In this document: positions 1,641 through 40,904 of the stretch, one piece after another
How the letters are laid out: each line of letters opens with the position of its first letter
Numbering within the stretch: position 1 is the first letter of the stretch
The notes under the pieces: generated by a model
What the model was told of the DNA's origin: nothing
The model's database searches: none
Seen by the model: the letters and a program-made list of their open reading frames with translations, nothing else
NCBI GenBank assembly: GCA_003647645.1
Contig: QMNG01000001.1
Location: forward strand, 7,938-71,937
From: a candidate division Kazan bacterium
GTDB taxonomy: Bacteria; Patescibacteriota; Kazan-3B-28
Direction of reading: 5' to 3'
DNA length: 64,000 nucleotides
Position numbers and translations under genes: made by a program

Positions 1641-1867
1641 TTTTGCTTGCCCAAACGGCTAGTTTCCCAAGCGCTTGACGGCGCTTGACCCGTCGGGACT
1701 TTTCTAGAAAAGTCCCCCCAAAAGTCCTCCGCAGTCGTTTTCGCTATTCATAAAAGAAAACTACCTTTCCAGCTCTCGCTGAACTCGGTTGCCGCGGCGA
1801 CCTCAAACATGCAGCCCCGCCAGCGGCAGTTTTCTTAATGAATTACGCTCAAACTCCAATGCTCGAT
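1641..1867. repeat. Copy A of a ~225-nt structured intergenic element (possible ncRNA), second copy at 28451-28670
   Basis: Shared blocks TTTGCTTGCCC, CAAAAGTCCTCCGC, CTGAACTCG, GCTCAAAC, AATGCTCGAT; hairpin 1695-1716 and helix 1747-1762:1828-1842 retained in copy B through compensatory substitutions. Confidence 0.6.
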
Positions 1868-2083: not shown

Positions 2084-2437
2084 ATGAAAGCGGATAAGGA
2101 GATTCTAGGTTTGGTCGCTCAAATGCGCAATATGCTCGACTCACTGGAGTTAAAGTTGGGTGTCAGCCAGGGCAACGACAGGCCGTCAAAGCAAGTGCAG
2201 AAGCCACGAGCCGATTATTCGGGGCCAAGTGGCGGTGTGAGGCTGCTGTTAGATGAAGACTTCTTTAAAACTCCTAAAGCTGTGTCGGCGGTAGAGAGTC
2301 GTCTGCGTCAAGAGGGACGTCACTATCGGCAATCTGTGGTTGCAATGGCCTTATTGCGTGCTGTGCGCAAGCGTCTGTTGACTAGGTTACCATCTGGCGG
2401 CAAGAAAGGACAGTGGAGTTATGTTGAAAGAAAGTAG
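2084..2437 (+). CDS. Small coiled-coil plus winged-helix-like protein, paralog 1 of a tandem family
   Basis: 117 aa; N-terminal amphipathic helix, Gly-rich linker SGPSGGVRLLL, C-terminal module ending KKGQWSYVERK; paralogous to 2421..2768 and 3056..3370; TTGACA at 2018-2023 upstream. Confidence 0.6.
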   Translation: MKADKEILGLVAQMRNMLDSLELKLGVSQGNDRPSKQVQKPRADYSGPSGGVRLLLDEDFFKTPKAVSAVESRLRQEGRHYRQSVVAMALLRAVRKRLLTRLPSGGKKGQWSYVERK

Positions 2438-2768
2438 TATTGTAAAAAAACTGCATGAATTATCTAAGCGGGTAGCCCGGCTGGAGCGATTGCTGATACT
2501 AGGCCGCCCGTCTGAGTCGGCTAGCGATCCAGTAGGGAGAGCTCCAAGTGGTTTTCGCGGCTCAACGGGAGGTGTCCGGCTGCTTATTAAAGATGGAGTC
2601 TTTAGGCAGAAGTGTCAGCTATCTGATGTAGTGGCTGCACTGACCAAAAGGGGTTATCACTACAGCCGTCAGGCAGTGCATGAGTCTCTGAGAAGACTCT
2701 CTTCGACTCATGGTCCGCTTGTGTCGTTAAAAGAAAAGGGCCGTAAAGTTTATGTTGAGAGGAGATAA
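2421..2768 (+). CDS. Small coiled-coil plus winged-helix-like protein, paralog 2
   Basis: 115 aa; GSTGGVRLLIKDGVF...KRGYHYSRQAVHESLRRL...KGRKVYVERR aligns with paralog 1; 17-nt overlap with the upstream gene suggests coupling. Confidence 0.6.
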   Translation: MLKESSIVKKLHELSKRVARLERLLILGRPSESASDPVGRAPSGFRGSTGGVRLLIKDGVFRQKCQLSDVVAALTKRGYHYSRQAVHESLRRLSSTHGPLVSLKEKGRKVYVERR

Positions 2769-2770
2769 TT

Positions 2771-2986
2771 GTGAAAAGAAAAAGGTCGAAAACGAGTCTC
2801 GCTGAAAAACTTATCAAAGTTATTAATAAGGAGCCGAGGTCTGCGGAGGAGCTTCGGCGAGATTTGAAAGACAGGTTTGGGTACAATGAGAAACCAGAGG
2901 ATATTAGAGTAAATCTACTTTACCTGTTGCGGCGGGAGAGGATTAAGCGGAAGAAGAGTGAGAAAATATACAAGTACCATATTTAA
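2771..2986 (+). CDS. Minimal basic winged-helix-like protein, paralog 3 (lacks N-terminal helix)
   Basis: 71 aa, GTG start 2771 preceded by gagaggag; EELRRDLKDRFGY...RVNLLYLLRRERIKRKKSEKIYKYHI follows the C-terminal module pattern of its neighbours. Confidence 0.5.
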   Translation: MKRKRSKTSLAEKLIKVINKEPRSAEELRRDLKDRFGYNEKPEDIRVNLLYLLRRERIKRKKSEKIYKYHI

Positions 2987-3003
2987 TTTGAGAATGGCAA
3001 GGT

Positions 3004-3048
3004 CCGAACAATCCAAACAATCCCAACAATCCGAACAATCTGAACATA
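3004..3048. repeat. Five tandem 9-mers CCNAACAAT directly upstream of paralog 4
   Basis: ccgaacaat ccaaacaat cccaacaat ccgaacaat ctgaacata, ending 7 nt before ATG 3056; position fits an operator or iteron-like array over the promoter. Confidence 0.7.
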
Positions 3049-3055
3049 TAAGACT

Positions 3056-3370
3056 ATGAACAAGAAGATCATTCAATCACTTATCAAACGGATAAAACGA
3101 CTCGAGAATCACGTCTTCGGCAGCAAAAAATCACAGCGCCCGCAGAAAAGAAAAAGTAAAAGCTTGCCGGATATTATTCTTGGGCTGAGGGATTCAGGAT
3201 TCTTTAAGCAACCCCGGACAGTAAAATCAGTTTATGATAAGTTACTGCTGATGTATCATACTGATCTTAAAAAGGTAGATACAGCTCTTCATAGGCTCCG
3301 GGTTCGAAAAAAACTTCGGATAACTCATTTGTCAGATGGAAAGAAGGAGGTGAAAGCGTATGTCTGGTAA
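3056..3370 (+). CDS. Small coiled-coil plus winged-helix-like protein, paralog 4
   Basis: 104 aa; IKRIKRLENHVFG helix, LPDIILGLRDSGFFKQPRTVKSVYDKLL...GKKEVKAYVW matches paralogs 1 and 2. Confidence 0.6.
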   Translation: MNKKIIQSLIKRIKRLENHVFGSKKSQRPQKRKSKSLPDIILGLRDSGFFKQPRTVKSVYDKLLLMYHTDLKKVDTALHRLRVRKKLRITHLSDGKKEVKAYVW

Positions 3371-4145
3371 AGTGACCGATACCGAGGCGAAGATAAAGAG
3401 TATTCTTCAGCAAGAGTTTGAGAAGGGCCGCATAGATGCAATCTTAAAGCATTTCACTACTGCGAAGGAAAAATATAGAGAGGGAGATTGGGATGGTTCT
3501 ATATCTAAGTCCAGCAAGTTTGTCGAAGCGGTAACAAAGATGCTATTGCGGTTTTGTGGTAAGACCCTACCAAGAACAAGGCAATTTCGTGCTGGGCAAT
3601 CTTTGCGCAATCTTGAAAATGAACCTATTTCAATTGATGACGCAGTACGTATTGTAATACCGAAATGCTGTTTGTTTATTTACGAAATAGCCAGTAACCG
3701 AGGAGCTCGTCATGATACTGATGAAGTAGATGCGAATGAGATTGACGCCGGTGTAATCGACATATCAATATCTTGGGTTTTAGGCGAACTGATTCGTTTC
3801 GCTAGCAAGAGAAGTAAAGACCCCGAAGAAGCACAGGAACTAGTAGAAGCGCTCGCTGGCAAAACATATCCATTTTTCGAAGAAATCGAGGATAGATTCT
3901 ACGTCAATATTGAAGGATTAAGTGCCAAAAAAACTGCTTTACTTATTCTTTATGGTCGCTATTCTCGTAGGACTAAACCAGATATCTTGCTAAAGTTAGT
4001 GGAACGACATGGGTTTTCGTCCAAAAATGCTGACATGGCTGTCAGGCGTGTAAAGAAGATTTGTGATATTAACGAGCGCGGTATGAGGTTGAGAAGCATT
4101 GGTATAAAGAAGGCTGAAATGCTCTTAACCCAATTTGGTAAATAA
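3360..4145 (+). CDS. Helical N-terminal domain (weak HEPN-like NRGARHD signature) fused to the same winged-helix-like C-terminal module
   Basis: 261 aa; aaggagg 3344-3350 before ATG 3360, 11-nt overlap with paralog 4; C-terminus LLILYGRYSRRTKPDILLKLVERHGFSSKNADMAVRRVKK follows the module pattern; ccctcc...ggaggg hairpin plus T-run at ~4173-4210. Confidence 0.5.
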   Translation: MSGKVTDTEAKIKSILQQEFEKGRIDAILKHFTTAKEKYREGDWDGSISKSSKFVEAVTKMLLRFCGKTLPRTRQFRAGQSLRNLENEPISIDDAVRIVIPKCCLFIYEIASNRGARHDTDEVDANEIDAGVIDISISWVLGELIRFASKRSKDPEEAQELVEALAGKTYPFFEEIEDRFYVNIEGLSAKKTALLILYGRYSRRTKPDILLKLVERHGFSSKNADMAVRRVKKICDINERGMRLRSIGIKKAEMLLTQFGK

Positions 4146-4232
4146 TACTAGAGATTGGCTTCGGGGGTGCATAGCCCTCCCTAGCTCATAGAGCGACGGA
4201 GGGGTTTTTGATTTGGGCCTACCTACTGGAGG

Positions 4233-4252
4233 TAGGGTATAATTCAGTTATG
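4233..4252 (+). promoter_or_regulatory. Leaderless-type promoter of the SIR2-like gene
   Basis: tagggTATAAT (4238-4243) then 6 nt then ATG 4250. Confidence 0.5.
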
Positions 4253-5473
4253 AAGGAGAAAGTTAAAACAGTTCTAATTTTTGGAGCGGGGGCATCTTAT
4301 GATTGTGGAAACCCGACAAAAATTCGGATACCTATGTCTAGAGATATCTACAACATGGGTGCCATCGACAAAATTGATCAGTTACGATCAGCCCCTACAA
4401 CTTGGTCGTATATCCGGTCTAGGGCATCATCTGTGCAGATTACTATACAAACAGAGTTCGAGGGTAATACCGAAAAGTATTTGGATAGTGTTTGGGATAA
4501 TCCAAGAGAACAACAGTTTATGATTGATTCTCTATACTATTTGCGCCATCTGACATCGGTAGGAGAAGTTATATCTGGTAATACTAATAATTATCAAAAG
4601 TTATTTGACTGGGTTATTAAGAAAGAAGAAATCCGACTTTCTGACGTAATAAGCTTCAATTATGATACTATCTTAGATAGCACTTTTTGCCCAAGATTCG
4701 GGATTGAAGATAATCCCAAAAGCTATCTTGGTTTGAATCGTTCTGGGCCACGATTGATTAAGCCACATGGCTCTGCCAACTGGTATGTAAAAATCCCAGT
4801 ACCAGATCATGGCAAGTTGGCGCAGTATAGCGATTCCCACAGAAGATCAATGGAAAAAGTTCGTTTATGTAGAGACTTTATTCTGCAGCCAGATATAGAT
4901 ATAGATCAAATCAATGTGGGTGATGCTGGCAGGATTTCCGGACTCATAAGTGACCCAGGGAATATCTTGCCCAGACCCTGCATCATACTACCGTTATTAT
5001 CTAAAGCGGTTGTTACGAACGTATTCCCCGAGATTATGCAAGCGACTGAGGATGCTATTAGTAAAGCTGACCACCTGATCCTAATTGGTTACAGGGGGGC
5101 GGATGACGATTTCACTAACATTTTGTCTAACAGATTATCAGTCGGCAGTAAAAAACTTGTGGTATCTACGGTTGGTATGGGTAGTGCAGTTGAGATACGA
5201 GATACATTAGTAAAGCTTGGTGCCACCGGTTTGGCAGGGTTTGCTTTCACAGGTGGTTTTACTAGATTCATAGATGTTCTAAACAGTCAGTATTCTCAAT
5301 CCGTTGTGGATTTTGTTGGTGATGGTTATCTTTGTGTAAGAGACTTCAGGATAAAAAAAGACTTTATGGAGCAGTGGGTAGCTAGACCTATTAGCGATTC
5401 AGGTGTTTTATTGAGTAACGATTTTGAGAGACTAGTCAAAGGTCAGGAAATAGCTCCCGGGGCTGGTTTTTGA
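4250..5473 (+). CDS. SIR2_2-like (SIR2-family, non-sirtuin) protein, candidate NADase effector
   Basis: LIFGAGASYDCG, SFNYDTILDS, IKPHGSANWY and LILIGYRGADDDF in the order typical of the SIR2-like defence domain; no sirtuin CxxC zinc ribbon; in-frame ATG 4250 preferred over TTG 4208. Confidence 0.65.
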   Translation: MKEKVKTVLIFGAGASYDCGNPTKIRIPMSRDIYNMGAIDKIDQLRSAPTTWSYIRSRASSVQITIQTEFEGNTEKYLDSVWDNPREQQFMIDSLYYLRHLTSVGEVISGNTNNYQKLFDWVIKKEEIRLSDVISFNYDTILDSTFCPRFGIEDNPKSYLGLNRSGPRLIKPHGSANWYVKIPVPDHGKLAQYSDSHRRSMEKVRLCRDFILQPDIDIDQINVGDAGRISGLISDPGNILPRPCIILPLLSKAVVTNVFPEIMQATEDAISKADHLILIGYRGADDDFTNILSNRLSVGSKKLVVSTVGMGSAVEIRDTLVKLGATGLAGFAFTGGFTRFIDVLNSQYSQSVVDFVGDGYLCVRDFRIKKDFMEQWVARPISDSGVLLSNDFERLVKGQEIAPGAGF

Positions 5474-5475
5474 TT

Positions 5476-5495
5476 TGGGGTATAATTGGAATATG
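5476..5495 (+). promoter_or_regulatory. Leaderless-type promoter of the methyltransferase gene
   Basis: tggggTATAAT (5481-5486) then 6 nt then ATG 5493; SIR2-like gene stop TGA at 5471-5473. Confidence 0.5.
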
Positions 5496-6635
5496 GGGAC
5501 AACAAAGAGGCAATTGGGCCAATTTTTTACAACCAATGCAGACTATATTTTGCAGGGTTTTGAGCGATATGTAGCAGGTAAAGATGTAACGGATCCTTTT
5601 GCTGGTGGAAGTGATCTTCTGTTATGGTCTCAAAATCACGGTGCTAAAACGGTGCGGGGGTTTGATTGCGATAAAAGATATGTAGATGATCGGATTATTT
5701 TTAAAAACGATTCAATCAATTCTCCTGGCAGTTATAAGTTTGTATGTACTAATCCTCCCTACCTACACAAAAACAAAGCCGACAAATTAACCAAAAAGTT
5801 ATTTTTTAATGGGGATCATTCGGTCTTTGAGGACCTGTACCAGGTATCGATATTTTCTATGCTGGGAGCAGAGGAAGGTATTGTTATAATACCACTCAAC
5901 TTCCTCTGTGCTGATAATTCTCGTAAGATACGGAATTTATTCTTTGAAAAGTTTAAGATTGTTAAGCTTAATATTTTTACTGAGCAAGTTTTTCACGACA
6001 CGACTTACAATGTAATCTCTTTCTATTTTAGGAGGTGTAAGAAAACAGCTGATGTATATACAATCCCCGCATTGGTTTTACCAGAGCATAGAGAAATATC
6101 ATTGACTATCGAAAAACGGCTAGGCTGGAAATTAGGTGGTGAGTTCTTAGCACGGGTGAATGGTACCAACAGTAAAGGAGTCATGCGACTCACTCAAGAT
6201 ATGATTCATGAGGGTCCCCATCAAGTTCTGCTATCCGTACAGGATTTGAAACAGGCAGCAATGTGTTGGGTAGACAGCTCCACGAAGAAGATGCTTAAGC
6301 AGAATATTCTACTTTTAAGAGCGATAGATAGTAAGAATAGTCATAAAATTAGGTTAGAAGACATTAGACAGTATGGTGTAGATGGATTAGTGGGTAAATC
6401 AACTTCACGCAATATGGCTCACATTATATTCAAGGAACCGTTGTCAATTAATGAACAGTTAGAGCTGATAGATAAATTCAATAGCATGTTAAATAAACAT
6501 CGCGAAAGATATTTTTCATTCTTTCTGACCAATTATCGTGATAACAACCGGAAAAGAATTTCTTTTGATTTCACATATAAATTCATAAATTATTTAATCT
6601 CCTCACAGCGGACGTTGGAAGGAGTAATGAGATAA
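5493..6635 (+). CDS. N6-adenine DNA methyltransferase (gamma-class, NPPY)
   Basis: LGQFFT, DPFAGGSDLL (motif I FxGxG) followed by CTNPPYLHKNKA (motif IV). Confidence 0.8.
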   Translation: MGTTKRQLGQFFTTNADYILQGFERYVAGKDVTDPFAGGSDLLLWSQNHGAKTVRGFDCDKRYVDDRIIFKNDSINSPGSYKFVCTNPPYLHKNKADKLTKKLFFNGDHSVFEDLYQVSIFSMLGAEEGIVIIPLNFLCADNSRKIRNLFFEKFKIVKLNIFTEQVFHDTTYNVISFYFRRCKKTADVYTIPALVLPEHREISLTIEKRLGWKLGGEFLARVNGTNSKGVMRLTQDMIHEGPHQVLLSVQDLKQAAMCWVDSSTKKMLKQNILLLRAIDSKNSHKIRLEDIRQYGVDGLVGKSTSRNMAHIIFKEPLSINEQLELIDKFNSMLNKHRERYFSFFLTNYRDNNRKRISFDFTYKFINYLISSQRTLEGVMR

Positions 6636-6636
6636 G

Positions 6637-7455
6637 TTGCAAATAATTGTTATGAATAAATGGGTTAAAAAGAGTCTGGATTTAGCAGCTTCCCCCGGTT
6701 ATCTGGATAAGTTACATGACATCTACCCTGTAGACATCAGTGTGGTGCGACAGATAGGTTCCCAAGTAGAGCAGTCTATCAAAGCGGCTTTTAAAAGTAG
6801 GAATAAAGAGAGATTGATAACGACTTTGCTTGATTTAGAGCGTTTTCCAATTGATGAACCATATGTAGGATTTATTCGTAAGAACAGAGCTGCACTGGGC
6901 AGGAATCCCAAGACAGTACGACGTATCTACAGAAGGCTCGAAGAACTAGGTTTGCCAGGTATTCTCGAAGGCGTGAGTAAACCACCGTCACCATCGCGTA
7001 AAATGGGCCCCGCATTTAAAAAATGGCTACACAGTCTCGGATATCCTGTTCTAAGTGCTAGGGAGATTTTAGAGACCAGAGAAAAAATTGCTGTTTTGTC
7101 AGGCAGTGATGCTGCTCTCAAGAAATTTGCCAAACATGAATTAGGATACCGAGGAGGTAAAGGATTAGACTTGGTTATGAAGGTGGGAGAAACATTCTTG
7201 ATCGGAGAAGCAAAATTTATGTCAACTGGCGGCGGAACTCAGGATAAAAGTTTTCGAGAGAGTTTACGTTTTGTCAAGAGTTCTAGTGGTAATGCGATAC
7301 GAATTGCGGTTATGGATGGCATTGCCTGGGCACGACCCTTTCAACAGAGGTCATCCAAATCACTGACTTTATATAAAAGCGTGGAGAAATTGGGTGAAAA
7401 GCAGGTAGTGCTGAGTGCCTTATTGCTCAAACAATTTATTAATTCATTGGCATAG
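6637..7455 (+). CDS. Putative type II restriction endonuclease (PD-(D/E)xK)
   Basis: Immediately follows the MTase; GLDLVMKVGETFLIGEAKF gives D...(E)xK spacing; start TTG 6637 or ATG 6652. Confidence 0.5.
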   Translation: MQIIVMNKWVKKSLDLAASPGYLDKLHDIYPVDISVVRQIGSQVEQSIKAAFKSRNKERLITTLLDLERFPIDEPYVGFIRKNRAALGRNPKTVRRIYRRLEELGLPGILEGVSKPPSPSRKMGPAFKKWLHSLGYPVLSAREILETREKIAVLSGSDAALKKFAKHELGYRGGKGLDLVMKVGETFLIGEAKFMSTGGGTQDKSFRESLRFVKSSSGNAIRIAVMDGIAWARPFQQRSSKSLTLYKSVEKLGEKQVVLSALLLKQFINSLA

Positions 7456-7471
7456 AAATTGCTCGGATTGT

Positions 7472-7499
7472 CCAACGGCTCAACGTGTTGAGCCGTTGG
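7472..7499 (+). terminator. Palindromic hairpin closing the accessory block
   Basis: ccaacggctcaac gt gttgagccgttgg followed by ggttttgg; near-identical palindrome again at 7862-7885. Confidence 0.55.
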
Positions 7500-7504
7500 G
7501 GTTT

Positions 7505-7524: not shown

Positions 7525-7863
7525 CATTGGTGGGTTTGGTTTATTTTAGGTTTTGTGGTGGCGTTGGGTGTTGTGGCCTGGGCTTTACTTAGCGTACGGG
7601 GCAAGAATGACCCGTCTACGCCGAAGGCTTCGCCGGGCCTGCCTGATGACTTGATAAGCCATCAGGCGCGGGAAAAGGCAGAGAACCTAGGGAAGATCAA
7701 GGGTTTGTTTGCAAGGCAAACAAAAGTGGCGAATGATGATGTGCAGACACTCTTGGGCATCTCCGATGCCACTGTGACGAGGTATTTGGATGAGTTAGAA
7801 AAACAGGGAATTATCCGGCAGGTCGGGCAGACTGGCAAGCATGTTTATTACGAAAAAATCTAA
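7522..7863 (+). CDS. Membrane-anchored winged-helix (DeoR/MarR-like HTH) protein
   Basis: 113 aa; N-terminal TM WWVWFILGFVVALGVVAWALL; C-terminal LLGISDATVTRYLDELEKQGIIRQVGQTGKHVYY. Confidence 0.55.
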   Translation: MHWWVWFILGFVVALGVVAWALLSVRGKNDPSTPKASPGLPDDLISHQAREKAENLGKIKGLFARQTKVANDDVQTLLGISDATVTRYLDELEKQGIIRQVGQTGKHVYYEKI

Positions 7864-7924
7864 CGGCTCAACGCGTTGAGCCGTTGAGCTTATCCACCCA
7901 AGCGCGAGGCTTTTGACGGGGTTT

Positions 7925-10128: not shown

Positions 10129-10315
10129 AGGAATATCAAGAGTGTGGTGAACCTCCAACGCAAAAGCTACGGAGGTCAGGATTTCTAAGATTTAGGAGTT
10201 CTGGGGTACTGGCCCTATGATCCACCGGCAACCTGCTTATCAAGGCAAGGTGCCAAAGCCAGCCCATAAGGGAACGATATATTAGTATGACTTCTCTTGT
10301 GATGGAGAAGTTTTT
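10129..10315 (+). promoter_or_regulatory. SAM-I (S-box) riboswitch, copy 1, with intrinsic terminator
   Basis: aaTATCAAGAG ... GGGGTACTGGCCCTATGATCCACCGGCAACC ... AAGGTGCCAAAGCCAGCCC ... GGGAACGATAT matches S-box core blocks; terminator acttctc-ttgtgatg-gagaagttttt 10290-10315 whose 5' half (ctcttg) can pair with P1 caagag. Confidence 0.85.
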
Positions 10316-10972: not shown

Positions 10973-11190
10973 AGGAATATCAAGAGTGTGGTGAACCTCC
11001 AACGCAAAAGCTACGGAGGTCAGGATTTCTAAGATTTAGGAGTTCTGGGGTACTGGCCCTGTGATCCACCGGCAACCTACTTATCAAGGCAAGGTGCCAA
11101 AGCCAGCCCGCCTCGGTGGTATTCTCCACGGGGCACGGCAAGGGAACGATATATATTAGATGAAACTTCTCTTGCAAATGAGGAGTTTTT
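10973..11190 (+). promoter_or_regulatory. SAM-I (S-box) riboswitch, copy 2, upstream of metK
   Basis: ~145 nt with 3 mismatches to copy 1, then a 31-nt expansion of the P4 loop; TTGGAG-16-TATAAT promoter (10930-10957); terminator acttctc-ttgcaaat-gaggagttttt 11165-11190. Confidence 0.85.
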
Positions 11191-23545: not shown

Positions 23546-26452
23546 ATGTTTTTTAATGGTTTCAACTTGATAATCGTAGGCGGGTTGGTAGTCGGTTGGC
23601 TGCTTTTATTTTATTTGATATTTATTTGGATTCGCAGGGCTGGGGAAACCAAGTCGCTCGAAGAGCCGGGCGATTCCAAGCAGGGTGAGGCCATTAGTAA
23701 GGTGCTAGACACTAAACCAGCCAAACCAGCTGCCAGAGCGTTCGATGAGGGTGTGTTGCTGGGCTTGGAGGTGCCGAAAGATAGCGAAACAACTCCACTG
23801 GCTGCCGAGCTGTTGTTTTCGAGTTTGCATGGCATCTTTAAGCCGGAGTTAGACAAAAAGCGGAGAGGCGTTCAGGAGCGAATTGGTTTTGAGATCCAAG
23901 CCAAGGAAAAATCAATCCGGTTCTATGCTTGGGTACCGCGCCACTTACAGGGTTATGTTGAGGGTCAGATTTATGCCCAGTATCCGGGCGTGAATATTCT
24001 GGAAGTGAAAAACTACACCAAAAATGCCCAGGAGTTGTTGAAGAATTCTCATGTGGCTTCCGCAGAGTTGATTCTCACCCGCGAAGACCTGTTTCCAATT
24101 AAAAGCTTCGATAGTTTCGATGTTGACCCTTTGGCTGCGATTACAGCAACTCTGAGCAAGTTGCAGGGTGATGAACAGGTGTGGATTCAGATATTAGTAC
24201 GGCCGGAGGATAATCGTTGGCGGGAGCGGGCAATCAGCTATATTTCAGCAGTGCGTTCCGGCAGACAGGCTTTCGGCGCAGCACTAATTAAGGGTTTGGC
24301 TGGGTTGGCTTCGGATGTAGTCAAAACTGCCATGAGCGGCGAAGTGCCGGTAAACGAGGACAAAAAGGCAGAGTTGGCGCCAGGGGTTGAAGATGCCTTA
24401 AAAAAAATCGAAGAAAAAAGCTCTAAACTTGGATTCCAGACCAAAATTCGAATTATAGCCTTTGCTGAGAGCGGCATCGCTGCCCAGCAAAAGGTTGATT
24501 TGGTAGTGGGTTCGTTTAAGCAGTTTAACACCACTAATCTGAACGGATTTAAGGCGGCCATTGCCAAGCCGTCCGCGGTGCCAACACAGATTGTTAATGA
24601 ATATGTAGCGCGCGAGTTTCCTGCTGTCAAAAGCCCGGTATTGAATGTCACCGAACTGGCCAGTATTTACCACTTGCCGAACAAGTCTGTGGTTACTCCC
24701 AATATTGAGTGGGCAGGTTCTAAAAAGGGAGAGCCACCCGCCAATTTACCGTTGGCTGATGAGGTGGACGCCAGCATTCTAACCAATTTGGGCGTGACCG
24801 ATTTTCGCGGCAACAAAGAAAAGTTTGGAATTAAAATGAAAGACAGATACCGACATATCTATATTATCGGCAAGAGCGGTGTTGGAAAATCTGTCTTACT
24901 GGAAAATATGACGCTGGACGATGTCCGGGAGCGCCGCGGCGTGGGAGTGGTGGATCCGCATGGCGAATATGTGGATTATGTTTTGGACAGGATTCCCTCA
25001 TATCGGGTTAACGATGTGATTCTGTTTGACTTGGGAGACAGGGAATATCCGATCGGATTCAATGTTTTAGAAGTAAGCAACGACAACCAAAAGCCGATCG
25101 TAGCTTCGGGTGTAGTAGGAGTGTTCAAGAAAATTTTTGGCGACTCTTGGGGTCCACGATTGGAGTATTGGTTGAGTTCGGCCATCTTAGCACTATTGGA
25201 TTATCCTAATGCTACTTTAATGATGGTTCCGCGGCTTTACACGGACAAAGCCTTTCGCAGTGAGGTATTGGAGTATGTTAAGGATCCGGTGATCAAGGCT
25301 CGATGGATTAACGAATTCAACAGATTAGATCAACGGCAGGTAAATGAAACCATTAGTCCGATTTTAAATAAGGTTGGACAGTTTTTGTCTTCGTCAATTA
25401 TCAGAAATATTGTTGGTCAGCCCAAAAGCGCCATCAACATGCGGGCAGCGATGGATGAGGGCAAGATTCTGCTAATTAAACTGACCAAGGGTGCCATTGG
25501 CGAAGATAATATGGCGTTGATCGGCTCTTTGATCATTACCCAAATCCAGCTGGCGGCAATGTCCAGGTCCGATATAAAGGATCCGGAAAAAAGACGGCCC
25601 TTCTTTTTGTATGTCGATGAGTTCCAAAATTTTGCCACCGATTCGTTCGCTACGATCTTGTCTGAGGCCAGAAAGTATAAGTTGAGCCTAGCGATGGCTA
25701 ATCAGTTTATGGCGCAGTTATCTGATACAGTCAGAGACGCGATTCTGGGAAATGTGGGGACGCTGCTGTCATTCAGGGTTGGCGGAACGGATGCAGCGGT
25801 CTTGGTGAAGGAGTTCGCGCCGGTCTTTGATGAACAGGATTTAGTAAATTTGGATTTGTATAAAATTTATCTGAAGCTCTCAATAGATGGCTTAACTGCC
25901 AACGCCTTTTCGGCTACAACTTTGCCGCCAACTACAGAAACTACCAACAACCGTGAAAAAATTATTCGGCTTTCGCGCGAAAGGTATGCCAAAAAAGCAT
26001 CATTTGTGGAGAGTAAAATATCCAAATTTAATATAGCTTTAGAGGGTGCGCCGCCGTCTGCTGCCCCTTACAGGGATATAAGTCGATCAGGCAGGACCAT
26101 TAGCAGGGCACCAGCAAGAGGCGGGCAGAGAACGCCGACCGGATCGGTACCGGTTGACGCCGAAAGAAGAGATGGTAAACCCAAGCGCAGCGGCGGGGCT
26201 GGCAGCATTTTAAGGAATTTAATTTCTCGGATCGAACGGAAACGTGAAAAGCCCTTTGATGAAGAACAGCGCAGCGATGTAGCTAAAACACTGATAGACG
26301 ACCTAAAAGATGAGGGTGGCAGCATCAAGGAAGCCCTGGAAAAGGCCAAGCAGCGCAAGGCGGAAGAGCAACGCCAATTAAACGAGCTGAAGCCCGACCA
26401 AATTATTGATATTGAACCGCCAGACGATGCAGAGGACGAAGAGGATCGGTAA
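23546..26452 (+). CDS. Membrane-anchored TraD/VirD4-like (coupling-protein-like) P-loop ATPase, paralog 1
   Basis: N-terminal TM; Walker A IIGKSGVGKS; DPHGEY; Walker B-like FFLYVDEFQNF; SEARKYKLSL; paralogous to 36402..38831; Lys/Arg/Glu-rich disordered tail. Confidence 0.6.
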   Translation: MFFNGFNLIIVGGLVVGWLLLFYLIFIWIRRAGETKSLEEPGDSKQGEAISKVLDTKPAKPAARAFDEGVLLGLEVPKDSETTPLAAELLFSSLHGIFKPELDKKRRGVQERIGFEIQAKEKSIRFYAWVPRHLQGYVEGQIYAQYPGVNILEVKNYTKNAQELLKNSHVASAELILTREDLFPIKSFDSFDVDPLAAITATLSKLQGDEQVWIQILVRPEDNRWRERAISYISAVRSGRQAFGAALIKGLAGLASDVVKTAMSGEVPVNEDKKAELAPGVEDALKKIEEKSSKLGFQTKIRIIAFAESGIAAQQKVDLVVGSFKQFNTTNLNGFKAAIAKPSAVPTQIVNEYVAREFPAVKSPVLNVTELASIYHLPNKSVVTPNIEWAGSKKGEPPANLPLADEVDASILTNLGVTDFRGNKEKFGIKMKDRYRHIYIIGKSGVGKSVLLENMTLDDVRERRGVGVVDPHGEYVDYVLDRIPSYRVNDVILFDLGDREYPIGFNVLEVSNDNQKPIVASGVVGVFKKIFGDSWGPRLEYWLSSAILALLDYPNATLMMVPRLYTDKAFRSEVLEYVKDPVIKARWINEFNRLDQRQVNETISPILNKVGQFLSSSIIRNIVGQPKSAINMRAAMDEGKILLIKLTKGAIGEDNMALIGSLIITQIQLAAMSRSDIKDPEKRRPFFLYVDEFQNFATDSFATILSEARKYKLSLAMANQFMAQLSDTVRDAILGNVGTLLSFRVGGTDAAVLVKEFAPVFDEQDLVNLDLYKIYLKLSIDGLTANAFSATTLPPTTETTNNREKIIRLSRERYAKKASFVESKISKFNIALEGAPPSAAPYRDISRSGRTISRAPARGGQRTPTGSVPVDAERRDGKPKRSGGAGSILRNLISRIERKREKPFDEEQRSDVAKTLIDDLKDEGGSIKEALEKAKQRKAEEQRQLNELKPDQIIDIEPPDDAEDEEDR

Positions 26453-28450: not shown

Positions 28451-28670
28451 TTTTGCTTGCCCGCCTGTAGCCTTGGTATAGGAGGGTCCAAAACGGTTTT
28501 CCTTCGGCACTTTTTTAAAAAAGTGCCCAAAAATTCTCCGCGTTCACTCTCGCTGTTAGCGTAAAAGAAATTTTTCTTCTTGCTTATCACTGAACTCGCT
28601 ACGCTCAAACAGCAGGCATGCTAGAATAAAAAATTTCTTTAGCTAAAGACGCTCGAGTTCAATGCTCGAT
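28451..28670. repeat. Copy B of the ~225-nt structured intergenic element
   Basis: Same conserved blocks as 1641-1867; hairpin ggcactttttt/aaaaaagtgcc 28506-28527; helix 28557-28573:28631-28645. Confidence 0.6.
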
Positions 28671-28745
28671 TTCAATTGTTGACTCCGCCAAATAGAAGTG
28701 ATTTTGCTATCGGCTTACACAATTGCCTCGATGTGCCCCAAAAAT

Positions 28746-28771
28746 CTATCGGCCCATCTATGGGCCGATAG
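28746..28771 (-). terminator. Strong hairpin with T-run on the minus strand
   Basis: 11-bp stem ctatcggccca/tgggccgatag, loop tcta; minus strand continues atttttgggg. Confidence 0.55.
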
Positions 28772-28798
28772 AATCCGATCCCTATCTGAGCATCAGCG

Positions 28799-28839
28799 GT
28801 CTATTTTGTCTATTCGTCCATAAGTCCATTCGTCTATAT
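28799..28839. repeat. Five tandem GTCYAT units at 8-9 nt spacing (iteron-like)
   Basis: gtctatttt gtctattc gtccataa gtccattc gtctatat between two minus-strand terminator hairpins. Confidence 0.6.
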
Positions 28840-28846
28840 AAGAAAA

Positions 28847-28876
28847 CCGCCCATAGGGAATAGAGCCCTAGGGCGG
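28847..28876 (-). terminator. Terminator of the purC-like gene
   Basis: ccgccc-a-taggg-aatagag-cccta-gggcgg; minus strand continues ttttcttat; ~55 nt after the stop. Confidence 0.6.
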
Positions 28877-36401: not shown

Positions 36402-38831
36402 ATGTTCTGGATTTATCTTACAGTCGCAATAGCCATAATCGCCGGCGGTAGCTGGCTGGTTTTTAATATAAAAAGGAGAAGGGGAGCGCCGGCGGGTGAT
36501 GACATTAACAGTCGGGTAAATCTAATGATTACTGTCCCGCGCGGCGAGGAGGAGGAAAAAGACGTCAAGGAGAAAATTTCTCCAATGGCGACGGTTATGA
36601 GCAATCTTGCTAACATTGACGAAGTGATTGAGAAGCGTCATCTGACTTTTGAGCTGGCCACTGAGGGTGAATCGATTGTTTTTTATTTAACGGTGCCCGG
36701 GCCGCTGGTAGAGTTTGTAGAAAAACAGATAACTTCGCAGTATCCGGAGGCGGTGGTGGAGTCATCACCGTATCCAAATATTTTTCCCAAAGATGGAAAG
36801 GTAACTGCGGCTCAATTGGCGCTGAAAAAGCCTGCCTATTTTCCGATACAGACATTCGAGGAATTGTCCACAGACGGTTTAAACGCCTTAACTAACGCGT
36901 TAAGCAAGTTGGCCCAAGTCCGGTCTGGGGCGGCGATCCAGATATGCTTCCGCCCAACCACGGATAAGAAATGGCAAAATAAAGCCAATGATGTGGCCAG
37001 CAGGATGCAGCAGGGTAATTTTGGAGACGACAATTTAGGCAAAGAAATGTTCAAAGAATTCGCCAGCATTATAAAAGCCAATGATGACGACAAGAAAGAA
37101 TTTTCAGAAAGTAAACGCTTAACGGGCGTGCAGGAAGAGATAATTGACGCCATTAGCAAAAAAGCGGCCCGGCCGGGCTTTGACGTGGTTATCAGAATGG
37201 TAGCGGCTGCGCCTGATGATAAAACAGCCAAACTGAATTTACACTCTTTGGTAGACAGCTTTCTGCAATTTGGTTCGCACCAAATAAATCAATTCGAGGT
37301 CAATAACAGAATTAGTAAACGAGAAATAATTAAAAACTATGTATTGCGCCAATTTGGAAATCCAAAAGATAGCTTTATTTTAAATACAGACGAGTTAGCA
37401 ACCATCTTTCACCTGCCTTATACCGGTATCGAAACCCCGAATATCCGCTGGGTGAGGGCTAGGCGTCTGCCGGCTCCAGATAATTTGCCCAAAGAGGGGA
37501 TTACGATCGGAAAAAACATTTTTCGCGGCATGGAGCGGATGGTAAAAATTAAGCGCGACGACCGACGCAGACATCTATATATGATTGGTAGAACTGGCAC
37601 CGGTAAAACCACCTGGATGCAAAATATGGCCCTTCAGGACATTATTAACGGCGAGGGAGTCTGTGTAGTAGATCCCCATGGTGAAATGATCGAATGGCTT
37701 CTACAGAGAATCCCCAAGGATAGAGTGGAGGATATTATTCACTTCTATCCGCCGGATATCGACCGGCCGCTGGGACTTAATCTGCTGGAAGCCAAAACTC
37801 CGACCGAAAAAGACATGGTGGTGTCGGAGATGATTTCTATTTTTTACAAGCTGTTTGATCCGGAAGGAACAGGTAATTTTATCGGCCCGGTGTTCGAGCA
37901 CTATATGCGAAACATTATGTTGCTGTTGCTGGCGGACGAGGCCAGCGGTGCCACACTGATTGATATCCCGCGGGTGTTGACGGACGACGCCTTTCGTGAG
38001 GCCAAATTAGCCAAAGTAACTGATCCAACAGTAATGCGATTTTGGAAAGAAGAGTTTGAAAAGGCCAAAAAAAGCAATCAGCACGGCGAGATGTTAAGCT
38101 ATATAATCAGTAAGATCGGCCGGTTTATATCCAATCAAACTATGCGCAATATTGTCGGCCAAAATAAAAGCTCCTTCGATATGCGGGATGTAATGGATAA
38201 CCAAAAAATTCTGCTGGTGAACTTGTCCAAGGGCTTAATTGGAGATATTAACAGCAATTTGCTTGGCTTTATCATTGTTTCTAAGCTACAGATGGCGGCG
38301 CTGTCCCGGGCCGATATGCCTGAATCTGAACGCAAGGACTTTTATCTTTATATTGATGAGTTTCAAAATGTTACAACCAATTCAATTACTACGATCTTAT
38401 CCGAAGCGCGCAAATACAAACTCGATTTAATAATTGCCCATCAGTTCATGGCTCAACTGGATGAAAAAATTCGGGATGCAGTATTAGGCAATGTAGGTTC
38501 GATGGTAGCGTTTAGGATAGGTGTCCAAGATAGTGAATGGCTGAGTGAGGAGTTTGCTCCCGATGTCAGCGAAACCGATTTGATTAATATTGAAAATCGC
38601 AACGCATATATCAAATTAATGATTGATGGGGGAGTCAGTCGCCCGTTTACAATGCAGACTCTGCCGCCAATGGGTCGTGAAAATCCGAGAATCAGCCAGG
38701 CTATCAGACAGCTCTCTAGGCTCAAATTTGGCCGGGATAAGCGGCTGGTAGATAGCGAGGTGGGTAAAAGGATTAAATTTGTAAAAAAGATGCCACCAGG
38801 GCCTGATAACTTGCCAAACAAGGGCTTTTAG
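36402..38831 (+). CDS. Membrane-anchored TraD/VirD4-like P-loop ATPase, paralog 2
   Basis: N-terminal TM; MIGRTGTGKT; DPHGEM; FYLYIDEFQNV; SEARKYKLDL; collinear with 23546..26452, including ATIFHLPY..TPNIRW. Confidence 0.6.
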   Translation: MFWIYLTVAIAIIAGGSWLVFNIKRRRGAPAGDDINSRVNLMITVPRGEEEEKDVKEKISPMATVMSNLANIDEVIEKRHLTFELATEGESIVFYLTVPGPLVEFVEKQITSQYPEAVVESSPYPNIFPKDGKVTAAQLALKKPAYFPIQTFEELSTDGLNALTNALSKLAQVRSGAAIQICFRPTTDKKWQNKANDVASRMQQGNFGDDNLGKEMFKEFASIIKANDDDKKEFSESKRLTGVQEEIIDAISKKAARPGFDVVIRMVAAAPDDKTAKLNLHSLVDSFLQFGSHQINQFEVNNRISKREIIKNYVLRQFGNPKDSFILNTDELATIFHLPYTGIETPNIRWVRARRLPAPDNLPKEGITIGKNIFRGMERMVKIKRDDRRRHLYMIGRTGTGKTTWMQNMALQDIINGEGVCVVDPHGEMIEWLLQRIPKDRVEDIIHFYPPDIDRPLGLNLLEAKTPTEKDMVVSEMISIFYKLFDPEGTGNFIGPVFEHYMRNIMLLLLADEASGATLIDIPRVLTDDAFREAKLAKVTDPTVMRFWKEEFEKAKKSNQHGEMLSYIISKIGRFISNQTMRNIVGQNKSSFDMRDVMDNQKILLVNLSKGLIGDINSNLLGFIIVSKLQMAALSRADMPESERKDFYLYIDEFQNVTTNSITTILSEARKYKLDLIIAHQFMAQLDEKIRDAVLGNVGSMVAFRIGVQDSEWLSEEFAPDVSETDLINIENRNAYIKLMIDGGVSRPFTMQTLPPMGRENPRISQAIRQLSRLKFGRDKRLVDSEVGKRIKFVKKMPPGPDNLPNKGF

Positions 38832-38838
38832 ATGTAGA

Positions 38839-39417
38839 ATGACGCGTACTGTTAACAGAAATATAGAAATCAAAAGAAAGGAAAATAAAATGACAGACAA
38901 ATCCAAAATAGAAGTAGTTAAACAAATGCTAGAAAGCGCGAGCGCTAACTTGGCTTCAGCCAAGCAGATCTTGGGTGAACTTTTAGGCACTTCCTTCGAT
39001 GATGGCGTGATAAGTAAAACTACCGGTCTATCGTCCCGAGGGAATATCATTGAAGGCGTGTTTGACGGCCAGCATATGCTCGACGGCGATGGCAAAAAAT
39101 ATCCCGTGCCTGCCAACTATGCCAGCAAGTCTAAATTAGTGGTCGGCGATGTGCTTAAGTTGACCATTCAGGATGACGGCAGCTTTATATTCAAGCAGAT
39201 CGGCCCAGTTGAACGCAAGAAGTTAATTGGCACTCTGGTTCATGAAAATGATGAGTATAAAGTCGTTGCTGGCGGGAAGTCTTATTCCGTGCTGATGGCT
39301 TCTGTGACGTACTTCAAGATCAGCCCCGGCGATCAAGTAACCATTATGGTGCCCAAAGATAATGAAAATGTTGAGTGGGCCGCAGTAGAAAGCGCAATTA
39401 TTCAACCCGAGGGCTAG
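38839..39417 (+). CDS. Hypothetical protein
   Basis: 192 aa (or start ATG 38890, MTDKSKIEVV); predicted helix then beta-rich C-terminal half; no motif recognised. Confidence 0.45.
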   Translation: MTRTVNRNIEIKRKENKMTDKSKIEVVKQMLESASANLASAKQILGELLGTSFDDGVISKTTGLSSRGNIIEGVFDGQHMLDGDGKKYPVPANYASKSKLVVGDVLKLTIQDDGSFIFKQIGPVERKKLIGTLVHENDEYKVVAGGKSYSVLMASVTYFKISPGDQVTIMVPKDNENVEWAAVESAIIQPEG

Positions 39418-39995
39418 TTTATAGGTGTCAGGGTTATATCTGATTTATGTCGTACAAGATACATTGTGCGACTATTCCTGTTTCGATATACAGGCATATA
39501 TTATGTCTATCTTGCACTGGTACATATCCCCTAACATAAATTATGTTGGAAATTTTAAACTTTAATTATTTAGTTGTTAAACTTTCGTCTCTTAAAATGA
39601 CCCCGGCTTACGTGAATTCCCTATTCCAGGTGTAAATGGCTATTTTTATGCTCTGGGAGCTAATAAATTGACCTTTGACAGAGGAAAGGGGCTCAAATCC
39701 CGTAGGATATGAGCCCAAACCACCCAGGATACATGTTCCGCTCCAGGAGGGGGAAGTTGTCGGAGGGAAATCACCACCCATTTATAGGGGGATGATTGTT
39801 AATTACCCTGGGAAGTGTCCTCATACTAATCCAATTATTTCTAATATGTCAAATTTTTGTACAAAAAAGGGGCCAACTATCCGTCAGCCCCAAGGTGCAC
39901 ACCTCGATGGGGTAGGGTGTAGGACACCTTCCCTCCTCTGGCATGCCAGTGGTTCTTCTGAAAGGGGTAATGGTATGTGCAGATGTAGATCCCCG

Positions 39996-40352
39996 CTAGC
40001 CTGTTGCAGTTGGTGATGAAGACGAAGAAGTTGTTGTCAACATGTGGGCGTTAATGAATTCCTTCAGGTCCTTATCGTCTTCCTCACACTTCCCCTCAGT
40101 ACATGGGAAGTAGCCAACTTTTTCACCCACCTCGATACAGAGTTCTTTTCCCCTTAACCAGATGGATACTGGAACATATGCTTCTTCTTCTGTGCTAATT
40201 ACTACGCCTTCAAAGTGTGTTACGACTCCTTTTTGCACCATCATGACGAGATTGTGGGCCTGGACACGGCTGCGAATTACCACAGGACCGTGGCCATGGA
40301 CCATTTTCCCGCCATAAATAGAGCGACTGTGAGTACCCCTTGCGAAAGACAT
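39996..40352 (-). CDS. Hypothetical protein with Ser/Thr-rich tail
   Basis: Track ORF 39996..40442; ATG 40352 sits 7 nt after ggggagga; MSFARGTHSRSIYGG... Confidence 0.45.
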   Translation of the reverse strand: MSFARGTHSRSIYGGKMVHGHGPVVIRSRVQAHNLVMMVQKGVVTHFEGVVISTEEEAYVPVSIWLRGKELCIEVGEKVGYFPCTEGKCEEDDKDLKEFINAHMLTTTSSSSSPTATG

Positions 40353-40565
40353 TGCGGTTTCCTCCCCGTTTATTAAGGTTGTAAGGTTGAGAGAGGCCGT
40401 CCCGTCCTCCTGCGAGTATCCAAAGGAACAATAAACACACACGGCAACATAACCCCATTAGCAAGAACCAGTTGACATTTTTATTATACTGAATTATCGG
40501 TCTCCCAACAAGAAAAAAGGAAGGTTAGCGATTTACCTTCCTTTTTTTGACATGCTGTGCTTCTC

Positions 40566-40880
40566 TTAGAAAAAAGAAGCATCGGGTGCACAGGCCTTAA
40601 ATCGAATCCGTGGTAGTTTGTCTTGGGGGAGATCCAGAGTAACAACATCAGTCAAACAGACGCTCATTTGTTCCGCGGTAGCATCGAGCTTCTGGATAAC
40701 TAGGCTGCTCTTATCCGATTCAATCCCAATCAAGATACCCTCCACCGTCTCATTACGGCCAATTCCAATTTGGAGCTGTTGGTCTCCTGCTAGTCGATCG
40801 ATCAGGACCAAGTATCCGTTGATACAGGCCGAACTGATGTTGATGATGATCTCTTCAGTTTTTCTGGTGGCTGCTGGCAC
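40566..40880 (-). CDS. Hypothetical protein
   Basis: 104 aa; GTG start 9 nt after aaggagg; beta-rich; no motif recognised. Confidence 0.45.
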   Translation of the reverse strand: MPAATRKTEEIIINISSACINGYLVLIDRLAGDQQLQIGIGRNETVEGILIGIESDKSSLVIQKLDATAEQMSVCLTDVVTLDLPQDKLPRIRFKACAPDASFF

Positions 40881-40904
40881 TAGTTTTTGCCTCCTTGGTA
40901 TTTT

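Follow-up and report, generated by a model that had tools for sequence, protein, structure and literature searches.

An unannotated, structure-conserved palindromic element of candidate division Kazan, with relatives in prophages and plasmids and a possible likeness to plasmid single-strand origins

Two intergenic copies of one element, A (1641-1872) and B (28451-28672), are present in a 64,000-nucleotide stretch of the genome of a candidate division Kazan bacterium (assembly GCA_003647645.1, contig QMNG01000001.1, positions 7,938 to 71,937 of the forward strand), hereafter named the window. The copies are homologues with about 62% identity, they share a fold maintained by covariation, related copies come and go between close relatives, and the apical loop of copy B recurs in prophages and plasmids. 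The element is real, conserved in structure and hitherto unannotated, and it is part of a family of imperfect-palindrome modules that extends over several phyla. The sequence of ligA assigns the bacterium to candidate division Kazan within the Patescibacteria. With regard to its function, we tentatively favour, at somewhat short of even confidence, a module resembling the single-strand origins (sso) of plasmids, which would act as folded single-stranded DNA on the minus strand of the window.

The homology of the two copies had been proposed by a sequence-only reading of the window. With copy A as query, nhmmer matched copy B (1641-1867 against 28451-28670, E=2.9e-10) and gave no third match anywhere in the 64 kb. 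Covariance models (CMs) R1 and R2, derived from alignments A6 and A9, respectively, recover A and B at E 1e-16 to 1e-47, and R2 returned zero matches at E<0.8 over 1.0 Mb of unrelated non-Kazan loci. Every coordinate, string and helix named by that reading was found again, including the hairpins at 1695-1716 and 28506-28527 and the long-range helix (1747-1762/1828-1842 in A, 28557-28573/28631-28645 in B), all of which also appear in the computed folds. The blocks CAAAARTYCTCCGC, CTGAACTCG and AATGCTCGAT are present in both copies, and TTTGCTTGCCC, at 1642-1652 and 28452-28462, has there its only exact occurrences in the window. A further block considered as shared, GCTCAAAC, occupies non-homologous positions, belonging in A to the 3' side of the outer helix and forming in B the apical loop motif; the counterpart of this loop motif in copy A is CCTCAAACA at 1801-1809, and the true common apical motif is (C)TCAAACA. 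The earlier view that the two copies do not reflect a recent DNA duplication is supported, and so is the maintenance of the helices by compensatory changes. The element was also correctly taken as non-coding, and a fragment of a coding gene is ruled out, as no open reading frame (ORF) is common to the copies and the indels in hairpin P4 measure 13-25 nt and are not multiples of three. An island flanked by direct repeats is ruled out as well, metK, uvrA, uvrC and ligA lying between A and B. The element did not prove to be the terminal repeat of a known mobile element, an outcome that the sequence-only reading had named as fatal to its proposal, but it may well be related to a plasmid element already known.

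The element is built from variable 5' hairpins (one to three, among them P1 and P2), a CAAAG joiner and an irregular rod of about 150 nt. The rod, which measures 140-155 nt in all copies, consists of helices P0, P3a, P3b, P3c, sometimes P3d, and Pcore, and is capped by AACUC(G)...(C)UCAAACA (AACTC(G) and (C)TCAAACA as DNA). The apical motifs AACTC and TCAAACA are invariant in alignments A9, A11 and A12. They are split by CTACG/CTACA in B and in L008, one of four copies from related genomes described below (L008, L009, L011 and L099), and by the inserted hairpin P4 in A, L009 and L011. The TTTGCTTGCCC block is confined to A, B and L099. The parts of the two window copies are the following, features assigned to neither strand being given as unstranded.

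1641-1872, unstranded: copy A as a whole, with 5' block, three 5' hairpins, joiner and rod; found by nhmmer, CM R1 (181 bits, E 1e-47) and CM R2 (110 bits).
1642-1652, plus strand: 5' block TTTGCTTGCCC, common to B and L099 only; 5' arm of a small hairpin.
1668-1687, unstranded: hairpin P1, CAAGCGC/GCGCTTG, covarying with GAAGCGC/GCGCTTC in L009 and CAAACGC/GCGTTTG in L011; helix 1, 97% paired.
1695-1716, unstranded: hairpin P2 of A, GGGACTTTT/AAAAGTCCC; fold and alignment, helix 2.
1719-1733, plus strand: joiner CCAAAAGTCCTCCGC, whose core CAAAG/CAAAAG is kept in all copies, including those of prophages.
1737-1854, unstranded: rod of A, with P3a 1737-1744/1847-1854, P3b 1746-1751/1838-1843, P3c 1754-1765/1825-1836 and Pcore 1778-1781/1812-1815.
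1782-1809, unstranded: apex of A, with AACTC 1782-1786, P4 GGTTGCCG/CGGCGACC 1787-1802 and TCAAACA 1803-1809.
28451-28672, unstranded: copy B as a whole, starting 15 nt past the ligA stop codon (28435); found by nhmmer, CM R1 (66 bits) and CM R2 (81 bits).
28506-28527, unstranded: hairpin P2 of B, GGCACTTTTTT/AAAAAAGTGCC; fold and alignment.
28546-28658, unstranded: rod of B, with P3a 28546-28553/28651-28658, P3b 28556-28560/28642-28646, P3c 28564-28575/28629-28640 and Pcore CTG 28590-28592/CAG 28613-28615.

Compared with dinucleotide shuffles, A and B give better folds on both strands, with z-scores of -3.7 (A) and -2.9 (B) on the plus strand and a range of -2.8 to -8.3 across copies; the minus strand, folded with DNA parameters, forms the same rod. 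Across copies, 81-87% of the cells are paired, and paired substitutions are found in every helix, as illustrated by P3c (AAGAAAACTACC/GGCAGTTTTCTT, AGGAAAATCTTTT/AAAAGATTTTCCT, GCAAAATTTTC/GAAAATTTTGC and AGGAGATCTCCC/GGGTGATTTCCT) and Pcore (GCTG/CAGC, CTG/CAG, CTA/TAG, GGCG/CGCC and GGAC/GTCC). Covariation was quantified in two alignments, each of few sequences and fitted to the model, with these results.

Alignment A8: 6 sequences; 86.6% of cells paired; both-side changes in 29 of 56 pairs; covariation 0.408, against 0.191 +/- 0.022 in shuffles (0 of 500 reach 0.408) and 0.06-0.12 in slid controls.
Alignment A11 (rod only): 6 sequences; 76.5% of cells paired; both-side changes in 19 of 40 pairs; covariation 0.397, against 0.222 in shuffles and 0.08-0.16 in slid controls.

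In A11 the both-side changes affect 8 of the 11 pairs of P3c and all five of P3b. An alignment of 13 sequences, of which the prophage rows are partly redundant, gives a covariation of 0.495 compared with 0.172 +/- 0.016 in shuffles, with both-side changes in 33 of 40 pairs. The maintenance of the helices by compensatory changes, first noticed between A and B, hence extends to four more Kazan copies and to the 13 sequences overall.

The sequence-only reading had seen in this pattern the signature of a functional RNA. The conservation of the structure is borne out; the step from structure to RNA is not, given that the compensations are all Watson-Crick, that no significant strand bias is detected, that the element is antisense in prophages and that it displays signatures resembling those of sso. 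That reading was right to leave the strand open; neither G-U versus A-C pairs nor forward and reverse folds designate one. In the model-fitted alignments, 14 G-U versus 10 A-C pairs do not amount to a significant bias, and the forward and reverse consensus folds have equal energy; these counts and energies thus contain no RNA-specific signal. Hand-registered helices yielded 9 G-U versus 2 A-C pairs on the plus strand (p ~0.03), a count biased by the fact that the registers were picked on that strand. RNA accounts for the data no better than folded single-stranded DNA does.

The search was extended with nhmmer and CMs R1 and R2 to the ligA neighbourhoods of twelve further related genomes, which revealed four additional copies, each sense to its flanking genes.

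L008, 9760-9968: between a DUF8128/TraD-like gene and ligA, 20 nt past a stop codon and 33 nt before ligA.
L009, 5291-5500: begins at the uvrC stop codon.
L011, 4953-5168: behind a 92-residue ORF, and followed by a canonical terminator and a promoter matching the consensus at 12 of 12 positions.
L099, 6736-6916: behind ligA.

Altogether, six copies are present in about 310 kb of Kazan sequence, two of them in the window, and 8 of the 13 Kazan neighbourhoods searched are devoid of the element. The copies fill four different slots of a single syntenic block. A filled and an empty site could be compared directly: L009 contains about 280 nt of extra sequence at a place where its close relative L097, with flanks 85-89% identical, has uvrC abutting the next gene, indicating that the element was gained or lost over a short evolutionary scale. 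Neither inverted repeats nor a target-site duplication were seen at this junction. The sequences downstream of the six copies are all different, consisting of a small winged-helix ORF, no gene in the same direction (convergent purC), ligA, a 92-residue ORF, a terminator followed by a sigma-like gene, and dagK. In a metagenome search with a ligA alignment, the relatives retrieved were only 43-53% identical, the patterns corresponding to universal ligase motifs, and the element was not found in them. An orphan 5' module without a rod (GCCACCATTTTGCT...TTGCCC) was noticed in L008 at 4200-4270. It lies in a region (4162-5132) where no uvrC is present between uvrA and the next ORF, and which consists instead of about 1 kb of non-coding DNA with this module and short tandem repeats (AGAGAATAGAG, ATTAGACATTAGACATT and AAATTCTAAATTCC).

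Beyond Kazan, the exact loop of B and L008, AACTCGCTACRCTCAAACA, was found on 29 viral contigs of IMG/VR, where it caps a hairpin in almost all cases, the stem differing from case to case. About 20 of these contigs are near-identical P2-like prophages, in which the element separates the genes for the small terminase (gpM-like) and for head completion (gpL-like) and runs antisense to the two, unlike in contig L107, where it is sense. The sense orientation in Kazan and L107, as opposed to the antisense one in the P2-like prophages, implies a function independent of the direction of transcription. Although built from Kazan copies only, CM R2 matches about 17 viral contigs end to end at E 1e-7 to 1e-4, scores that derive partly from the loop used for selection. 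The order of the parts in the prophages is that of Kazan, with CCAAAG, P0 (CCCCG/CGGGG), P3a (AAATCGC/GCGATTT), P3c (GGAAAATTTTT/AAAAATTTTCC) and the loop. The prophage element (L102-L106, L111 and L119-L126) therefore has the full rod architecture and an identical loop, and differs from the Kazan element in being antisense to the flanking genes and in lacking the 5' hairpins P1 and P2. Its host is presumably a proteobacterium, judging from a P2-family capsid and from the nearest phages (~51% identity), which infect Shewanella and Burkholderia. P2-family phages replicate by rolling circle. The prophage element is unannotated and is found neither in Rfam nor in the GenBank phage set. BLAST searches gave no match, either with copy A against phages and plasmids or with a prophage copy against plasmids, E. 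coli genomes and GenBank phages. A two-block DNA pattern, CCAAAANNNCTCCGC...CTGAACTCG (21 specified bases), was found on no viral contig and matched genome contigs five times, none of these matches being scored by the CM at E<0.8.

Related loops are also found on plasmids. The Bacillus cereus plasmid pJ10_4 carries the exact Kazan loop on a hairpin (ACTCGCTACGCTCAAACAG on a CCAGCCAT/ATGGCT stem), and the rolling-circle plasmid pIP823 (pUB110 family) a shorter form, CGTTTTGAGCGTAGCGAAAAACG, arranged as CGTTTT-GAGCGTAGCG-AAAACG, the strand with TAGCGA being the sense strand of rep. These GAGCGTAGCGA-loop hairpins of pIP823 and pJ10_4 have the same loop core as the Kazan element, and differ from it by short stems and by the absence of a long rod and of a CAAAG joiner. 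Small Acinetobacter plasmids harbour the loop form ACTCGCTACGCTC. In one of them, p214-3, ACTCGCTACGCTCGA and a degenerate second copy, AACTCGGAATTCGCTTCGCTCA, were noticed at 1400-1470 in non-coding DNA about 400 nt from repM. A 43-nt hairpin query gave 80-86% matches in many plasmids, amounting to about 300 Acinetobacter and 750 Klebsiella plasmid records. Finally, replicons of Ralstonia, Variovorax, Ilyobacter and Parabacteroides each contain the loop string at two to six places.

The sso of a single-stranded plasmid is an extensive, partly palindromic hairpin, whose loop-distal stem contains RSB, required for the binding of RNA polymerase, and whose loop contains the six-nucleotide sequence CS-6, which terminates primer synthesis; the ssoA type measures about 160 nt and is orientation-specific, and in pSELNU1 its RSB is TTATGCCGAGAAAATTT and its CS-6 is TAGCGT (PMC4598088, PMC5703833, PMC8860593). 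Such origins are position-flexible modules, and RSB serves as a site of recombination (PMC5703833). In our comparison, palA of pT181 reads TTTATGCCGAGAAAACTT, a 37-nt spacer and gtTAGCGAGTTgg, and pE194 has an RSB identical to that of pT181, followed by GAGCGTAAGCGAAAGTAGTAGCGA and also read as GAGCGTAAGCGA...TAGCGA. The Kazan and prophage loops have TAGCGAGTT in common with pT181 and GAGCGTA(A)GCGA with pE194. On the minus strand of the window, the constant loop reads TGTTTGAG(CGTAGC)GAGTT, and the CS-6 hexamer TAGCGA is present in the apical loop of B, L008 and all prophage copies. The same strand also shows, by eye, strings resembling RSB at 25-26 nt on the 5' side of the loop motif, namely in L008 (CATAAACCGACAGGAAAATCTTTT), A (TAAGAAAACTG) and L009 (TGTATGCAAAATTTT). 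Set against RSB (TTTATGCCGAGAAAAYTT), the partial matches, again by eye, are CCGA...GGAAAATCTTT in L008, TAAGAAAACTG in A and TATGCAAAATTTT in L009, with a spacing of 25-26 nt versus 37 nt in pT181. Like ssoA, the element is a long (~160 nt) imperfect palindrome that folds as a single strand. The corresponding features of copy B are as follows.

28593-28611, unstranded: apical loop of B, the 19-mer AACTCGCTACGCTCAAACA; the identical 19-mer caps hairpins in viral contigs and in the Bacillus cereus plasmid.
28596-28601, minus strand: TAGCGA, matching the ssoA-type CS-6 hexamer, in the context TGTTTGAGCG-TAGCGA-GTTCAG.
28629-28650, minus strand: RSB-like TCTTTAGCTAAAGAAATTTTTT, compared with RSB TTTATGCCGAGAAAACTT, 26 nt 5' of TAGCGA; likeness by eye.

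An sso-like module is the most economical reading because the element takes opposite orientations with respect to transcription, because its loop is identical to a motif active in single-stranded DNA, and because it is gained and lost as a module. The active form would then be DNA and the active strand the minus strand, which, once single-stranded, would fold into the rod. By analogy, host RNA polymerase would bind the promoter-like lower stem and synthesise a short primer RNA ending at the loop, and DNA polymerase would extend this primer to generate the complementary strand. The dispersed and diverged Kazan copies are, most likely, modules imported with single-stranded mobile DNA, or mobilised like it, with their fold held by selection.

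Several observations weigh against this proposal. Four of the six Kazan copies (A, L009, L011 and L099) lack TAGCG, a hairpin or another sequence replacing CGTAGC between the retained flanks TGTTTGAG and CGAGTT. The likeness to RSB was judged by eye, and the palindromic stem shows similar strings on both strands. When CM R2 was run with filters off on palA/ssoA of pT181 and pE194, the best E was 3.2, so that what is shown is a resemblance to classical ssoA in motifs and architecture, not homology of the whole element. A replicon with a single-stranded stage is found for the prophage and plasmid relatives, and not in Kazan. No Rep, relaxase, integrase or transposase is encoded near any Kazan copy, in the window or in the related loci; likewise, PHROGs and Pfam assign no replication or mobility function to the small ORFs beside copy A. 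GC skew and gene orientation make the TAGCGA strand the template of the leading strand, which is normally not single-stranded. Furthermore, the six Kazan copies all lie in the sense of their neighbours, no promoter is present upstream of five of them, and a canonical terminator follows one, a pattern to be expected of a co-transcribed RNA.

A structured RNA is a serious rival, which we regard as possible though rather doubtful. It would be either a stable non-coding RNA processed from the 3' untranslated region or intercistronic stretch of the mRNA of the upstream gene, or the product of a small RNA gene of its own, whose apical loop binds a universal partner, for instance RNA polymerase in the manner of 6S RNA. 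The sense orientation of the six Kazan copies speaks for it, together with their positions (L009 starting at the uvrC stop, L008 separated by 20 nt from the preceding stop codon and by 33 nt from the following ligA, and B by 15 nt from the end of ligA), the lack of a sigma-70-type promoter upstream of L008, L009, L011 and L099, and the terminator and perfect promoter that follow L011. The strong covariation, the fold z-scores and the G-U excess on the plus strand, with its biased choice of registers, point the same way. The Kazan context favours transcription of the plus strand, with hairpins or terminators just downstream in some cases, as listed here for the window.

1884-1900, unstranded: GC-rich hairpin, 16 nt right of A, with a terminator score on the minus strand and a near-threshold score on the plus strand.
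28745-28772, unstranded: perfect 12-bp hairpin, 75 nt right of B, with a terminator score on the minus strand.

However, the strand in question is antisense to the surrounding late operon in about 20 P2-like prophages, which rules out a co-transcribed sense RNA as the common function. The unbiased pair counts contain no strand signal, the position of the element shifts between close relatives, as that of a housekeeping RNA seldom does, and the conserved loop corresponds to a motif whose action in single-stranded DNA is known. Nor did the element match an Rfam family: the comparison with Rfam 15, which the earlier reading had called for, gave only unrelated matches of 10-20 bits, both at the gathering threshold and at E<=10. 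Known RNA families (6S, signal recognition particle RNA, RNase P, tmRNA and riboswitches) are rejected on this basis, and the literature on the motif string and on structured RNAs of the candidate phyla radiation (CPR) provided nothing relevant.

It is unlikely, though the evidence is divided, that the element is a selfish interspersed palindromic repeat comparable to ERIC, BOX or Correia elements, spreading over intergenic DNA, with a fold kept for mobility, no function for the host, and sso-like motifs due to ancestry or convergence. The filled and empty sites in close relatives, the four slots occupied in one syntenic block, the orphan module of L008, the modular 5' hairpins (one to three), the finds in other phyla, on prophages and plasmids, and the two to six loop strings per replicon in Ralstonia, Variovorax, Ilyobacter and Parabacteroides speak for such a repeat. 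Conversely, terminal inverted repeats are missing, the ends TTTTGCTTGCCC and CAATGCTCGAT not being inverted repeats of each other, no target-site duplication is visible at the one readable junction, and no transposase is encoded nearby. The identity between copies of the same genome, about 62%, is low for miniature inverted-repeat transposable elements of recent activity, and only six copies are present in the ~310 kb of Kazan sequence, with none in 8 of 13 neighbourhoods. The sso-like, RNA and selfish-repeat readings overlap in part.

A wider proposal, which we consider improbable as a whole, is that a single hairpin module has spread over phyla into CPR chromosomes and P2-like late operons and is read by a universal enzyme, RNA polymerase being the most plausible one. 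The Kazan copies would then be either priming sites that turn imported or transferred single-stranded DNA into duplex, or the source of transcripts acting in a 6S-like manner. A cis-regulatory leader (riboswitch or attenuator) of the downstream gene is highly improbable and effectively refuted by the gene contexts, since, even though the element is intergenic and highly structured and A lies 217 nt upstream of the gene that opens the restriction-modification block, the six Kazan copies precede six different and unrelated contexts and the prophage copies are antisense to their neighbours. An integron attC site was rejected, as inspection revealed no RYYYAAC...GTTRRRY core sites at the helix bases, the copies occur singly, and their loop is conserved, in contrast to the variable terminal structure of attC. 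A retron non-coding RNA or a type I toxin-antitoxin system was discarded too, no reverse transcriptase domain being encoded nearby and no ORF being conserved between copies.

With regard to the surroundings of the two copies, A had been described as abutting a defence-like block. A restriction-modification or defence-like block does lie directly to the right of A, at 2084-7455, its first gene being 217 nt away. The copies do not bound an island. The block encodes a SIR2-like protein (weak match, 421 residues), an Eco57I-like methylase, a Tsp45I-like endonuclease, a product of 261 residues and four small paralogous products (117, 115, 71 and 104 residues) with no family match. Copy B follows ligA, as previously noted, at a distance of 15 nt, and on its right the stretch formerly called iteron-like (28745-28860) comprises the 12-bp hairpin and five TCTAT repeats (28745, 28757, 28800, 28809 and 28833). 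Next to an sso-like element, these repeats could be the relic of a double-strand origin. Paralogous DUF8128/TraD-TrwB-like ATPases (968 and 809 residues) are encoded at 23546-26452 and 36402-38831 and kept in all related loci, and L096 carries a gene resembling a type IV secretion system pilin gene; these genes hint at a DNA-transfer or DNA-uptake apparatus producing single-stranded DNA. The cumulative GC skew reaches its maximum at about 38000-41000, where gene orientation flips from plus to minus, and this region looks like a replication terminus or another point of convergence. Two SAM-I riboswitch-like aptamers precede a 200-residue ORF (10183-10287) and metK (11029-11155), respectively; with 37.8 and 28.1 bits versus a gathering score of 44.4, they are missed by a standard Rfam scan, and they sit in a 145-nt direct repeat of 98% identity (10121-10265/10965-11109). 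A terminator-like palindrome, CAACGGCTCAACG(Y)GTTGAGCCGTTG, is found after small genes at 7471-7503 and 7859-7891, and after uvrA in L008 at 4148-4172.

If the sso-like reading is true, modules of the single-strand-origin kind extend beyond small rolling-circle plasmids and integrative and conjugative elements, and a mobile, multi-phylum family of them is kept in chromosomes and prophages. It would also bear on how CPR bacteria, heavily dependent on DNA uptake, deal with single-stranded DNA. If instead the RNA reading is true, the element represents a new and well-supported class of structured RNA, with a 19-nt loop conserved across distant phyla. So far unannotated, the family now has a usable model.

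Among known systems, 6S RNA is likewise a long irregular rod with internal loops, and it would share with an sso the principle of a promoter-like structure offered to RNA polymerase. However, the 6S family RF00013 gave no match even at E<=10, and the Kazan element differs by its extra 5' hairpins, its apical stem, short or absent in B and L008, and its variable genomic position. ERIC, BOX and Correia elements are similarly intergenic, tolerated in operons, present or absent between relatives, and imperfectly palindromic, giving a long RNA hairpin, but they possess recognisable terminal inverted repeats, a higher copy number and a much higher similarity between copies, and none has this loop. 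With ssoA/palA of the pT181, pE194 and pMV158 families, the element has in common a size of about 150-160 nt, a long imperfect palindrome, in B, L008 and the prophage copies TAGCGA in the apical loop with equal flanks (TAGCGAGTT in pT181, GAGCGTA(A)GCGA in pE194), GAAAAYTT or CCGA strings of the lower stem that resemble RSB by eye and precede the hexamer by 25-37 nt on its strand, and a non-coding, position-flexible and sequence-diverse character. Unlike ssoA, the Kazan element is chromosomal, located among housekeeping genes and present in several diverged copies per genome, with neither a Rep gene nor a double-strand origin nearby; its CS-6 core is swapped in four of six copies, its covariance model scores neither pT181 nor pE194, and nothing described in these plasmid origins corresponds to its additional 5' hairpins or to its conserved motifs CAAAG and CTCAATG.

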